Positions 5,630-44,518 of a stretch of DNA of 48,688 nucleotides are shown here, piece after piece. Source of the stretch: Gammaproteobacteria bacterium (lineage in GTDB: Bacteria > Pseudomonadota > Gammaproteobacteria > SZUA-229); assembly GCA_041589615.1 (NCBI GenBank), contig JBFHVK010000001.1:1-48688 (forward strand), in the 5' to 3' direction. A model generated the notes under the pieces. That model had not been told where the DNA came from. It saw only the letters and a program-made list of their open reading frames with translations, and did no database searches. Position 1 is the stretch's first letter, and each line of letters begins with the position of its first letter. Made by a program: the position numbers and the translations under genes.

Positions 5630-5705
5630 TGGTACGGCCAGTAGGATTTGAACCTACGACCTGCCCCTTAGGAGGGGGCTGCTCTATCCGCTGAGCTATG
5701 ACCGT
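5630..5705 (-). tRNA. tRNA-Arg (anticodon CCU, reads AGG), CCA encoded
   Basis: Folded by hand as ACGGTCA-TA-GCTC-AGCGGATA-GAGC-A-GCCCC-CTCCTAA-GGGGC-AGGTC-GTAGG-TTCAAAT-CCTAC-TGGCCGT-A-CCA. This gives 76 nt, a 7-bp acceptor stem with one G.U pair, and U8 present. Confidence 0.9.
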
Positions 5706-5816: not shown

Positions 5817-5893
5817 TGGTTCCCGGCACAGGACTTGAACCTGTAACCTATAGCTTAGAAGGCTATTGCTCTATCCAATTGAGCTAGTCGGGA
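5817..5893 (-). tRNA. tRNA-Arg (anticodon UCU, reads AGA), CCA encoded
   Basis: Folded by hand as TCCCGAC-TA-GCTC-AATTGGATA-GAGC-A-ATAGC-CTTCTAA-GCTAT-AGGTT-ACAGG-TTCAAGT-CCTGT-GCCGGGA-A-CCA. This gives 77 nt with one A.C mismatch at acceptor pair 6:67. Confidence 0.85.
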
Positions 5894-40921: not shown

Positions 40922-41379
40922 TTAGTGGATATCGGCGTAGTTGTCGCCAAACTCTACAGAACATTCCAACTCCCTGTTGAGTTGTAGTTCCTCATTGACA
41001 AGCTTAATGGCTCTCGCCACATGCTTCTTCATTCTTTCTCTGTTACCTTTCTTAATCAAGGCAATCCATTCATCGTGCATTTGTCCAATGATTGGAGGGC
41101 CACCATCCATAACATGTGACAACCACCTATCAAAGCAATACACACCAGTACCTTGGTTGAGGGTAGAGAACCTATCCTTCTCATACCGAAGGCTATACCA
41201 GAACTTACTAACAGGATTGAATAACCACTTTTGGCCTCCAACTACTTTAACAATTTGCTCTTCTGCAATGGCCTTGACAGACCAATTACGTTTCCAGTAT
41301 GTCTCTACTAGCTCTTCTCCTTTATGCAAAGGGACACCAGCAGACCTAGCTACAGTGGCTCCACCTGCCCCGTATACAC
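40922..41379 (-). CDS. Family A DNA polymerase, exon 2 (rest of motif B, and motif C QMHDE)
   Basis: The open frame upstream of the listed TTG start reads ..GVYGAGGATVARSAGVPLHKGEEL.. and contains IIGQMHDEW. Confidence 0.75.
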
Positions 41380-42041
41380 CGTTGTGTTCAGGGAGGGTCG
41401 TTAATCCTCCCCCGCTTTATTCAAGCTGCTGCATGTCCCCATGCAGACCAGACTATATCATCACCTATTGGTGTTGCGCGCTTCGAGCCACTTGACCCTA
41501 CTCCTTTCGGATAGTCGTTGCACTTTCTAAGTACTCAATCGCCGTTTTAATTCTGTTAGTGTCATCCTTCAGTAGACCTAATGCTCTGTTGCAATTATGA
41601 CACAACAGACCTCTCACTGCACCAGTGGAGTGGCAATGATCCACATTCAAAGGAGACCTAACATGTTTATTCATATCAAACCCAACTTCCTTACAGATGG
41701 CACATAAGTTATTCTGTGCCTCTAATAACCACAACACTTCCCAGTATTGTATCTTATAAGACTTTCTGTAGTAGTTGTCAATTTCAACATACCCCTTACA
41801 CCTATCTGAACAATAGTGATGGGAGGGTGCATGAGGGGTAAAAATATTACCACACAGTTTACAAGGCTTGTCTTTGAAGCTGCCTTGTGGGTATTTACTT
41901 GGCGATGCAGTCATCTCTGACTGCGGGGCATTGCTCAATCTAATCATAATACTCCTTGTTTAGATTGAGTACTTAGCTTAGCTCAGGATTGTCTGTTCTA
42001 GATGTCCCCTGAGTTCACGCAATTTTACATGCGCCTAATTA
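41380..42041 (-). mobile_element. Candidate group I intron (662 nt) carrying a homing-endonuclease ORF
   Basis: Exon end AUGCGU pairs with the internal guide GCGCAU 8 nt downstream, giving a U.G pair at the splice site. The intron ends in G. Joining T + GT gives Cys and restores KQVNYACVYGAG. The flanks contain hairpins CUCAGG...CCUGAG, CUGCAUG-GGGA-CAUGCAG and GGGAGG...CCUCCC. Confidence 0.65.
41498..41947 (-). CDS. Endonuclease VII / HNH-family homing endonuclease (intron ORF)
   Basis: 149 aa with SD AAGGAG and CAICK...LNVDHCHSTGAVRGLLCHNCNRALG, the Endonuclease_7 signature. Confidence 0.85.
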   Translation of the reverse strand: MIRLSNAPQSEMTASPSKYPQGSFKDKPCKLCGNIFTPHAPSHHYCSDRCKGYVEIDNYYRKSYKIQYWEVLWLLEAQNNLCAICKEVGFDMNKHVRSPLNVDHCHSTGAVRGLLCHNCNRALGLLKDDTNRIKTAIEYLESATTIRKE

Positions 42042-43467
42042 ACGCATAATTAACTTGCTTATATACATGGCGGATGCCTTTGATAAGTTTCATTTCCTCA
42101 TCCTGTAGCTCTTCAGCCTTATAGGCCAACACCTTCTCAGGTGTAAGTGCCTTGGCGAACTCTGCAAGGTTTAAGTGAGGGTCGAAGTCAGGAGTCATCA
42201 TCTCCCTGACATAATCAGGGTCATGCTTCCACATGTAATGCTGCTTAGTCCTGTCTTCGAGGCTGCTCATATCGCTACCACAAAGCTCATAACCTTCAGG
42301 AGCAACCAGACAACCACGGATATCACTACCATAAGGCTTATCAATGCCTGGAAGGTTAACCACCACCCGGTGCTTGAAGCGTAGCGTGTTGGTGAGTCCT
42401 TGCACTTCTGCTCGGACATAACCTTCCTCGTCTACATTCTCCAGAAAACCGTTCAGCACAGATATACGGTGAGTAAGGATAGTTAAGCCTTCTAACGGCT
42501 CAAGCCCCGGCTCTTTGGCAAACAGCTCTTTAACACTCCTGCATAGCCCCGGCCCTTTGCTCTTATCCTGTTGAATCTGTGGGATTTTCCTTACGTCTCC
42601 AGTCTCCTTATTCCTGTCATACTTGAAGGTTTCAGGCTCCCAACCCAAGGAATCCAACCAACTCTTTAGTTGAGGGATGGAGTTAGGGTTAGGTTCTTCC
42701 CAACTCTTTACATACTCAACAACTCCTTCGTAATCTTCTGGTAGGTTTTGCTCTTTAAGTAATGTAAACCAAGACTCACCAGCCACGGTAAGCTTCTTCA
42801 ACTTACCTTTCAGGTACATCTTATTAGGTTTGTGCTTCTTAGCCATCTTTGGCACAGGAGGCATAGCTGACTTAAGCTCTTCTACCTTCTGTTCTTTTTC
42901 AGCAGACAACCTATCAAACACTTCCCTGCATCTATCTACATCAAGCTTCCATCTATGTTGTTCTTGAAGCTGGGCACATTTTAATTTGAAAGAGAGGTAG
43001 TCAATGAGACGTAATGCCTCTTCCTCGCTGCCGTATAACTTAAGCAGCTTATCCCACATCTTCTTCCAAAGAAGCCTGTTGATCTCTACGTCAGTCTCAC
43101 AACGGTGAATGTAATCCTTAACGTCAAGATTTTCCCAGTCATCAATCTTAGGTTTCTCTACCCCTAACTCTTCCCCCCATTGCTCTAGTCCGTGCATTAA
43201 CCTGTCAGGGTACAAGTACCAAGAGAGGGCCAGTGTATCTACTAGCCTAGCCTCCACTTTAATATCTAACAATCTTTCGATTGCTGGGATATCATACCTG
43301 ATGATGTTGTGACCAACCAATATCTTAGCCTTCCCCATGTACTTACGGATGTTGGCATAGTTAGAGGTTGACTTTTTCTTCTTGTCCCCATCAACAGACA
43401 CAGACAAGCAATGGATTTTTGTAGGGGAGAGTCCGTCAGTTTCAATGTCGAACACATCTCCAATCAT
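42042..43467 (-). CDS. Family A DNA polymerase, exon 1 (3'-5' exonuclease, motif A, first half of motif B)
   Basis: It starts MIGDVFDIETDGL (ExoI), has CGSDMSSLEDR (motif A), and ends ..RHVYKQVNYA followed by an in-intron stop after 5 more codons. Confidence 0.85.
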
Positions 43468-43958
43468 CTACTAAATCTCTTAGCCATCTTCCTGTTGTGC
43501 ATATCTACAATGTACCGAACTTGGTGTTCAGCCATATCCTCTCGTATCTCAGAAATCTCTTTGATACGATAATTATACTTGTAGTATAAAGTTAAGACCT
43601 CCTTAGCAGGGGAATCTGGTAGTTTATTTACTGTCTTGATGATATGGTGCAACTCATCACCACGGAACACATCCTGTGCCTCGTCTTCTAGTTCAAGCTC
43701 ATCCACATCAGAGGTCATACCAAACTTACGCTCTGCTGTCATGTAGTCCTTAAGGGCGTTATTCAATGTTACAGTGAACCATCCCTCAAGGTTGCCTACA
43801 TCCTCATCCTTAAGGTAGCGTAAAGCTCTTTCAAACGCATTCATCACAACATCTTCTGCGTTCTCAATAGACCCAGCGCGTCGATGCACTGCTTTCACAT
43901 ACCTTTGGTAATTATCTTTGAACAACTTCTCAAGAGCTGCCTTACTTACTTCACTCAT
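43464..43958 (-). CDS. ECF-type sigma-70 family sigma factor
   Basis: I prefer the ATG at 43958 (MSEVSKAALEK) with an ATGA overlap to the upstream gene. It has region 2-like AEDVVMNAFERALRY..GWFTVTLNNALKDY and region 4-like EVLTLYYKYNYRIKEISE. Confidence 0.75.
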   Translation of the reverse strand: MSEVSKAALEKLFKDNYQRYVKAVHRRAGSIENAEDVVMNAFERALRYLKDEDVGNLEGWFTVTLNNALKDYMTAERKFGMTSDVDELELEDEAQDVFRGDELHHIIKTVNKLPDSPAKEVLTLYYKYNYRIKEISEIREDMAEHQVRYIVDMHNRKMAKRFSR

Positions 43959-44518
43959 TGGTGTTCCTTGTTTAATTTGCAATCCGGATGATGATCTAGC
44001 CAAGTGCAGCGGCCGTCGCAGAATTGCTCAGCTAACAGCGTGGGCGCTGCCGGTAGCGGCAACCAGTGAGTGACAATACCTTCGTTCACCGCAATACTGC
44101 TGTAATCGCCCCAGTTGTCGATGCACTCATACCAGCCTGCGGGCAGGTAATAGGCATCCTCCTGCTCGCTATACTCGAAGCACTCGGTATCAGGGTCTGA
44201 CAGGTCGTCCGCCTGAATCGTCCAAGCATCGACGTGCTGCGCGCGAATGCGCCGCTCCATGCCGTAGGTGTTCAGGTAGAAAGCCAGAACTGTTTGCCCG
44301 CTAGGCGGCTTTCGCTCACTGCAAGCTATCCATGCGGGCGTTTCCGGCTGCTCATCCTGCGGGGTGGCGACCGGAATCTGCTCATGCTCCAGCAGTCCGT
44401 CCAGTGCGGCGTACACATCCCCCATGTAAGGGCGGCCCTGCCGGTCTGAGAAGTCTTTGCACAGTTGCTTCACTGCATCCACAAACTGTCGGGATAGCAA
44501 GTGTTTAACTTCGCTCAT
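43955..44518 (-). CDS. DUF551-domain protein in a GC-rich patch
   Basis: The C-terminus reads WIACSERKPP..VLAFY.....GIVTHWLPLPAAP, as in DUF551. Local GC is about 60 percent against about 40-45 percent in the flanks. Confidence 0.7.
   Translation of the reverse strand: MSEVKHLLSRQFVDAVKQLCKDFSDRQGRPYMGDVYAALDGLLEHEQIPVATPQDEQPETPAWIACSERKPPSGQTVLAFYLNTYGMERRIRAQHVDAWTIQADDLSDPDTECFEYSEQEDAYYLPAGWYECIDNWGDYSSIAVNEGIVTHWLPLPAAPTLLAEQFCDGRCTWLDHHPDCKLNKEHQ

Follow-up and report, generated by a model that had tools for sequence, protein, structure and literature searches.

The closest known relatives of the element reported here are group I introns of phage genes. The td intron of phage T4, a member of subgroup IA2, interrupts a thymidylate synthase gene, measures 1016 nt and encodes the GIY-YIG endonuclease I-TevI. 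Among polymerase introns, that of cyanophage Pf-WMP3 is an IA2 intron without a P2 helix, located in a podophage family A polymerase gene and carrying the endonuclease I-PfoP3I (PMC3428280), and introns of the PhiI/W31 type occur in T7-like phages (Bonocora & Shub 2004, cited through PMC3428280 and PMC6083498). For an OM43-phage lineage related to Zobellviridae, a polymerase gene in two parts, with an intron suspected between them, has also been reported (PMC10580990). Here we analyze a 662-nt insert in the family A DNA polymerase gene of contig JBFHVK010000001.1 (assembly GCA_041589615.1, Gammaproteobacteria bacterium). The window is the whole stretch of 48,688 nt, which is one entire 48.7-kb contig of a fragmented 3.3-Mb assembly, and the insert is present once there. 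The host is a podophage of roughly 48.7 kb; the nearest relatives of its polymerase are found in Zobellviridae phages. The insert is very probably a group I intron of subgroup IA2 that is functional and carries a homing endonuclease. It extends an established family of mobile introns to a new host lineage and does not constitute a new kind of element.

The core architecture of the window intron, including P7.1 and P7.2, is that of the T4 td intron, and P7, J8/7 and P9 are nearly identical in the two. By sequence the introns are related, though the window intron lacks the P2 of td and differs from it in endonuclease, host gene and length. The Pf-WMP3 intron resembles the window intron in that its open reading frame (ORF) begins in P6a and extends over P6, P7, P7.1 and P7.2, and in that a UAA directly follows the 5' splice site (PMC3428280); it differs in its site, at E. 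coli position 674 in the numbering of PMC3428280, and in its conventional HNH nicking enzyme. The PhiI/W31 type, for which the Yersinia phages Berlin, Yepe2, YpP-G and AKS2022HT72GU serve as examples, is located four codons upstream of the window site (KT-F/C↓IYG; arrows mark splice sites), its core is only 63% identical, and the host is an autographivirus. PMC3428280 assigns these introns to "site 881" in the polymerase, at variance with their position in motif B (KTF↓IYG) in the Yersinia relatives.

Two other groups of phages carry introns at the very site that is occupied in the window. In Escherichia phage vB_EcoM_4HA13 (Chaseviridae), the site (NYA-C↓QYGAG) and P1 (AUGCGU/GCGCAU) are identical, the core is of IA2 type, and the polymerase is annotated as a joined coding sequence (CDS) with an internal HNH gene. 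The 4HA13 intron differs in its core, which is 66% identical and falls in a td-like subgroup, and in its HNH protein, which has no relationship to the window ORF. In the Pakpunavirus phages Kat, ZCPS13 and Ps12, the same codon of the polymerase gene is interrupted in the same phase (Y-G-C, T↓GT), by introns of the P2-less IA2 core subgroup that includes the window intron. Their identity with it is 76–80% over about 240 core positions, and the Ps12 intron also has an endonuclease of the same family, likewise in P6a. The Pakpunavirus introns differ in their host polymerase, a myovirus enzyme that is not that of the window and is much larger, in an expanded P7.1 and in the family of the host phage.

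Interrupted polymerase gene and exon junction

On the minus strand, exon 1, the insert and exon 2 follow one another without a gap. Exon 1 encodes a 3'-5' exonuclease-like N-terminus (RNase_H_2 Pfam match) and the first part of the polymerase domain, and it ends with KQVNYA and the first base of a Cys codon. As the initial annotation stated, the frame then runs into a stop five codons later: the 480-codon ORF (43467..42025) reads ...IRHVYKQVNYA and ends in LIRRM, with the stop at 42027..42025. The frame of exon 2 opens at 41416 without a start codon and reads ...GVYGAGGATVARS... through QMHDE to its stop; a scan of the sequence found no in-frame start ahead of TTG 41329 and no Shine-Dalgarno sequence (SD). 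The distance from the exon 1 stop to the 3' splice site is 645 nt; the value of 458 nt originally given for this gap is in fact how long exon 2 is. With 42042 joined to 41379, the insert drops out between the first and second bases of the Cys codon, TGT is restored and the predicted 627-aa protein reads KQVNYACVYGAG across the join.

The spliced protein is colinear over its full length with uninterrupted polymerases, to which it aligns as a single piece. Identity with the Zobellviridae polymerases of PA11, TC6, O4 and K4 is about 65%; those of GP100 and CW02 also align, and full-length alignment extends to Rhizobium phages and many others. The Pfam family DNA_pol_A (PF00476) matched the spliced protein with 44.4 bits (cut-off 34.3) in a single stretch, residues 359–519, that spans Cys476, while exon 1 alone gave no match and exon 2 alone 25.3 bits. 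The best NCBIfam Pol I match (residues 460–516) is centred on the junction. A sequence search of the Protein Data Bank (PDB) with the C-terminal 248 aa returned nothing at E ≤ 0.001, and the domain assignment rests on the Pfam and NCBIfam profiles. The break falls within the best-conserved stretch of the polymerase, namely motif B in the O-helix region, and only one family A polymerase gene of the genome is seen in the window.

Intron-less relatives define the insertion point to the base, Cys codon included, in agreement with the junction originally proposed. The junction region is KSVNYACVYGAG in TC6 and O4 and KATNYSCTYGAG in CW02, and two intron-less viral contigs (L018 and L019) have exactly the sequence of the predicted join. 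All 34 viral-contig relatives have an uninterrupted polymerase, and among the 22 relatives caught by the motif pattern the junction codon is Cys in 20 and Phe in none. No homologue was found that expresses the halves with starts of their own.

The sequence around the junction leaves room for a second reading, in which each splice site is moved downstream by one base, to follow U42041 and G41379. The resulting product is also in frame, with Phe (TTT) for Cys and the sequence KQVNYAFVYGAG, which resembles ...IYGFLYGAG of T7; the first intron base is U, and there is a second G before the guide strand and another after the terminal G. In the Yersinia T7-like intron (L002:2089-2768), moreover, sites one base downstream (TT↓T, Phe) fit P9.0 better and reproduce KTF of T7. 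Nevertheless, we regard such a shift in the window intron as highly improbable. The P9.0 pairing (GU of J7/9 with the AC preceding G41380) forms only with G41380 as the terminal G, both pairs being broken by the shift, and the same choice of terminal G, with compensatory changes, is made in 6 of 6 members of the subgroup. The earlier claim that the insert ends in this G is borne out accordingly. In ZCPS13 and 4HA13, which share the site, the first intron base is A and there is no junction ambiguity, so that the site reads T↓GT; the residue counts given above likewise favour Cys. With splicing at 42042/41379, the spliced junction is predicted to read ...AATTATGCGT↓GTGTATACGGGG... in a product 662 nt shorter than the genomic sequence, and cDNA would be expected to contain GCGTGTGTA under the Cys reading and GCGTTTGTA under the shifted one.

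The origin of the contig from a fragmented, metagenome-like assembly allows in principle for an assembly chimera, and on general grounds an insert of this kind could be an intein, or a free-standing endonuclease gene between two naturally separate genes. We consider it extremely improbable that the insert is anything of this sort: the polymerase halves are separate in none of the 34 relatives, the boundaries fall at the base that restores a conserved codon, and the same architecture occurs at the same codon in independently sequenced isolates. An intein was discarded on the ground that the host frame stops five codons into the insert.

Ribozyme core and covariation

The Rfam model Intron_gpI (RF00028) matched positions 42076..41429 over its whole length (1–253) with 32.8 bits; the E-value was 4e-6 when the region was searched and 1e-4 in a search of the window as a whole. 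This supports the original description of the insert as group I intron-like. The alignment places a 426-nt insertion in P6, at P6a, and this was the only group I match in the window. In a sensitive blastn search, the last ~140 nt of the insert matched the 3' half of the T4 td intron (72%, E=1e-10), as well as introns of hundreds of phage records, and ORF-less elements of about 250–270 nt aligned to both of its ends. The secondary structure (Table 1) was assigned by homology with related phage introns. In the window copy, all 64 pairs of the 13 helices (P1, P3–P9.2, with P7.1 and P7.2) are standard, with no non-pair.

Table 1 Coordinates of the intron, its structural elements, its open reading frame and the flanking exons in the window.
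Feature	Positions	Strand	Details and basis
Exon 1, family A DNA polymerase gene	42042..43467	-	ATG at 43467, last base U42042; ORF list, translation
Subgroup IA2 group I intron, 662 nt	41380..42041	-	5' splice site 42042/42041, terminal G 41380; RF00028, blastn, structure and covariation, P9.0
P1	42029..42047	-	Exon AUGCGU 42047..42042, 7-nt loop UAAUUAG, guide GCGCAU 42034..42029
P3 5' strand, P4, P5	41983..42022	-	P3 5' strand UUGCGUG 42022..42016; P4 UCAGGG/UCCUGA 42012..42007 with 41988..41983; P5 hairpin UCU-AGAAC-AGA 42002..41992; structure and covariation
P6a, 13-bp stem	41527..41976	-	CUAAGUACUCAAU (41976..41964) with AUUGAGUACUUAG (41539..41527)
Endo VII-motif (DHHRN/HNH-superfamily) homing endonuclease ORF, 149 aa	41498..41947	-	Pfam, PHROG, PDB, identity to intron ORFs
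Catalytic core 3' half (J6/7, P7, P7.1, P7.2, P3 3', P8, J8/7)	41451..41521	-	J6/7 and P7 5' GCAACGACUA 41521..41512; P7.1 UCC-GAAA-GGA 41511..41502; P7.2 GGGUC-AAGU-GGCUC 41498..41485; P3 3' strand CGCGCAA 41480..41474; P8 CACC-AAUA-GGUG 41473..41462; J8/7 and P7 3' AUGAUAUAGUC 41461..41451
Peripheral 3' domain (P9, P9.1, P9.2, tail)	41380..41446	-	P9 CUGCAUG-GGGA-CAUGCAG 41446..41429; P9.1 41426..41414; P9.2 GGGAGG-AUUAACGAC-CCUCCC 41411..41391; 11-nt tail UGAACACAACG, last base G41380
Exon 2, polymerase gene	40922..41379	-	Begins with GU of the Cys codon, VYGAGG...QMHDE...; stop 40924..40922

The P1 helix proposed earlier, between the exon end and an internal guide at intron positions 8–13, is present in the sequence, and the wobble pair at the splice site is U42042.G42029. 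P7 (GACUA with UAGUC) crosses P3 (UUGCGUG with CGCGCAA), giving the canonical P3/P7 pseudoknot. P6 consists of 2 bp, and the P6a stem above it, which had escaped notice before, closes a loop that holds most of the endonuclease ORF. Subgroup IA2 is defined by P7.1 and P7.2 between P7 and the 3' strand of P3, joined by G-U-A (PMC3428280), and P7.1, GUA and P7.2 occupy 41511..41485 in this order. GNRA-capped hairpins, of which the initial annotation mentioned one, are P9, with 7 bp and a GGGA loop, and P7.1, with a GAAA loop.

Covariation was evaluated with nine introns from seven host-gene contexts: those of the window, Kat and ZCPS13 (Pakpunavirus polymerase), 4HA13 (Chaseviridae polymerase), a Yersinia T7-like phage (polymerase), Erwinia phage VL73 (primase/helicase), Valrath (polymerase, PNL↓QN motif), Draal02 (T7-type RNA polymerase) and T4 (td). 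An alignment made with MAFFT only was abandoned, as it misaligned the variable loops and the P2 of td. Instead, the interiors of P6a were trimmed and the helices were arranged in fixed N-padded fields, with every row checked letter for letter against the sequence itself. Standard pairs were found in 99.5% of 570 cells, compared with 76.3% after shuffling and 33–44% when the partners were slid by 1–3 columns. Compensatory changes on both sides occurred in 40 of the 64 pairs (23.4 expected), and none of 500 shuffles equalled the observed pairing on any measure. The boundaries of the Yersinia intron are probably one base off on both sides in this comparison, which does not materially change the counts.

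The U.G at the splice site is invariant and P1 pairs in all nine members, while 5 of the 6 P1 positions covary with the differing host exons, as predicted for a functional guide sequence. P3, P4, P5, P6a and P8 also covary (P6a at 6 of 6 counted positions), as does P7.2 at 4 of 5 positions. The nine members, T4 td included, show no difference in P7 and J8/7, and most of P9 is invariant.

Several points weigh against the interpretation of the insert as a functional intron. The RF00028 score is below the gathering score of 50, which is an operational threshold and not a biological definition. P2 is absent, although an IA2 polymerase intron without P2 is reported to self-splice all the same (PMC3428280). 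Inspection by eye revealed no convincing P10 between the 3' exon and the guide region. The alignment was arranged by hand on the proposed structure, which biases the pair counts toward that structure; sliding and shuffling as controls, together with the independent alignment from Rfam, lessen this bias without removing it. Finally, we infer splicing in vivo from sequence, and the activity and target site of the endonuclease from homology only.

The score was calibrated with related introns. The ORF-less siblings of Pseudomonas phage Kat and Xanthomonas phage Valrath scored 71.9 and 69.7 bits, whereas the ORF-bearing relatives of the Yersinia T7-like phage and E. coli phage 4HA13 scored 27.0 and 26.7 bits, and the proven self-splicing T4 td intron (L014) was not reported at E ≤ 0.01 in the same permissive search. 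The low score of the window intron is thus attributed to the penalty for the 426-nt ORF insertion rather than to a defective core. The ORF-bearing phage IA2 introns received about 27–33 bits, so that scans at the gathering threshold will systematically miss them.

This calibration also bears on the possibility that the intron has decayed and lost the ability to splice, in which case the polymerase would be inactive or made as two assembling polypeptides, one ending in LIRRM and the other starting internally in exon 2. The score under the gathering threshold and the lack of a clear P10 would fit such decay, yet the low score is common to the ORF-bearing relatives and td fares worse, not one of the 64 pairs is disrupted, and the strands of P7, J8/7 and J6/7 are identical to those of T4 td. 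A separate product of exon 2, with no start ahead of TTG 41329 and no SD, would lack the YGAG half of motif B. With the break in the O-helix region of the apparently sole replicative polymerase and an exon 2 without a start, a non-splicing element would very probably be lethal. We therefore judge decay to be very unlikely.

With a splicing intron, the polymerase gene would be transcribed as one RNA, in which the intron folds into the P1–P9.2 architecture. An external guanosine would attack after U42042, held in the U.G pair by the guide GCGCAU, and the freed exon would then attack after the terminal G41380, positioned by P9.0. Ligation of the exons would yield the mRNA for a continuous 627-aa polymerase containing ...KQVNYACVYGAG....

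Intron-encoded endonuclease

The ORF (450 nt) leaves 212 nt of non-ORF intron sequence, the figure given originally, and is preceded by its own SD as had been claimed (AAGGAG, 41957..41952, 4 nt ahead of the ATG). The assignment to the EndoVII/HNH endonucleases was upheld by a match to Pfam Endonuclease_7 (PF02945) of 74.7 bits (cut-off 23.6; E=5.7e-21), by matches to PHROG endonuclease VII families down to E=1e-28, and by matches to T4 endonuclease VII and the restriction enzyme Hpy99I among the solved structures in the PDB. The DHHRN clade of homing endonucleases is defined by CX2-4C...DHxH...R...CX2C-N in the C-terminal half and takes in the ORFs from polymerase introns of the Yersinia phages Berlin and YpP-G, as well as of LUZ24, a phage of Pseudomonas (PMC6083498). 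In the window ORF, C82xxC85, D103-H104-x-H106, R112, C116xxC119 and N120 are all located in the C-terminal half, and every catalytic residue and both zinc-binding Cys pairs are present. The ORF shares 55% identity (E=1e-50) with its counterpart in the polymerase intron of the Yersinia T7-like phages and 49% (E=1e-51) with the one in Pakpunavirus Ps12, and it is unrelated to the HNH protein of the 4HA13 intron (E=0.03). An origin of the element as a chimera of a Pakpunavirus-like ribozyme and a T7-like-phage endonuclease was considered and dropped, the ORF being about equally similar to both homologues. No paralogue was found in the window by tblastn besides the ORF itself.

The last ~14 codons of the ORF overlap the 3' strand of P6a, P6, J6/7, the 5' strand of P7 and P7.1, and the stop codon TAG (41500..41498) abuts P7.2. 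This overlap, the absence of P2 and the occupancy of the same codon in other phages are additions to the initial annotation. The product is presumed, by analogy, to cut intron-less polymerase alleles near the insertion site. In a mixed infection, the 149-aa endonuclease translated from its own SD would cut such alleles, and repair would copy the intron into them (homing).

A functional ribozyme could also carry a degenerating or inactive ORF, leaving the intron immobile in the lineage of the window. Decay of this kind is common in the intron family, Kat having no ORF and ZCPS13 only the C-terminal 84 aa of a 159-aa ORF. The window ORF is full length in comparison with the Yersinia and Ps12 homologues, retains the Cys pairs and the D, H, H, R and N residues and has a strong SD, and we consider its inactivation unlikely.

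The start of the ORF is located in a local hairpin of 10 bp (41934–41969, minus strand; CUCAAUCUAA...UUAGAUUGAG), the 16-nt loop of which holds the SD and the AUG. The hairpin shares ACUCAAU with the 5' strand of P6a and so competes with P6a. For the 81-nt stretch that contains it, the minimum free energy is -23.2 kcal/mol (z=-3.2). In the introns of ZCPS13 and Ps12 and in the Yersinia intron, the SD itself looks paired with upstream sequence. The hairpin may exert translational control on the endonuclease.

Motif B as a repeated target

The distribution of the intron among the relatives is sporadic. Within Pakpunavirus, the intron occurs with the full 159-aa ORF (Ps12, L052), with only the C-terminal 84 aa (ZCPS13, L011:1191-1899) and with no ORF (Kat, L001:1482-1750, 269 nt), and the three states look like successive stages of endonuclease loss. 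In the records of Kat, ZCPS13, Ps12, JHP (L051), Valrath (L010) and BOESR1 (L015), the split halves are annotated as separate "DNA polymerase" or "hypothetical protein" CDSs with no intron feature, and spurious small ORFs are called inside ORF-less introns, such as CDS0026 of Valrath.

Polymerase motif B is a repeated target of the intron family at several neighbouring positions. Besides the site of the window, these include the position four codons upstream in Yersinia T7-like phages, KTFI↓ in Bas94 and FIYGFL↓YGAG in BOESR1. The primase/helicase intron of VL73 (L016:929-1653) has the P1 of the window intron (AUGCGU/GCGCAU) and a 76% identical core, but its ORF is unrelated; a move into a new site compatible with the guide could account for the 6 nt of exon end that the two introns have in common. 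It is conceivable, if rather doubtful, that the T↓GT Cys codon of motif B before N-TAY-GG is a shared landing site that related IA2 ribozymes reached on separate occasions in three or more unrelated phage lineages (a Zobellviridae-like podophage, Pakpunavirus and Chaseviridae) with two unrelated endonuclease families, and that the hairpin with the SD and AUG (41969..41934) might link translation of the endonuclease to folding of the ribozyme.

In annotation, one joined 627-aa CDS (43467..42042 and 41379..40922) with an intron feature and an intron-encoded endonuclease should take the place of two truncated polymerase genes plus an "endonuclease VII". The window intron adds a data point for a Zobellviridae-like phage and leaves the current understanding of group I introns unchanged.

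Upstream of the polymerase, a sigma-factor-like gene (43464–44003) adjoins the polymerase start and overlaps it. Paundecimvirus TC6 (L003) is annotated with the same order, RNA polymerase sigma factor and then DNA polymerase, and the shared order supports a Zobellviridae-type replication module in the window. Two tRNA genes are located on the minus strand at 5633–5705 and 5820–5893 (Rfam, 68.9 and 64.8 bits).

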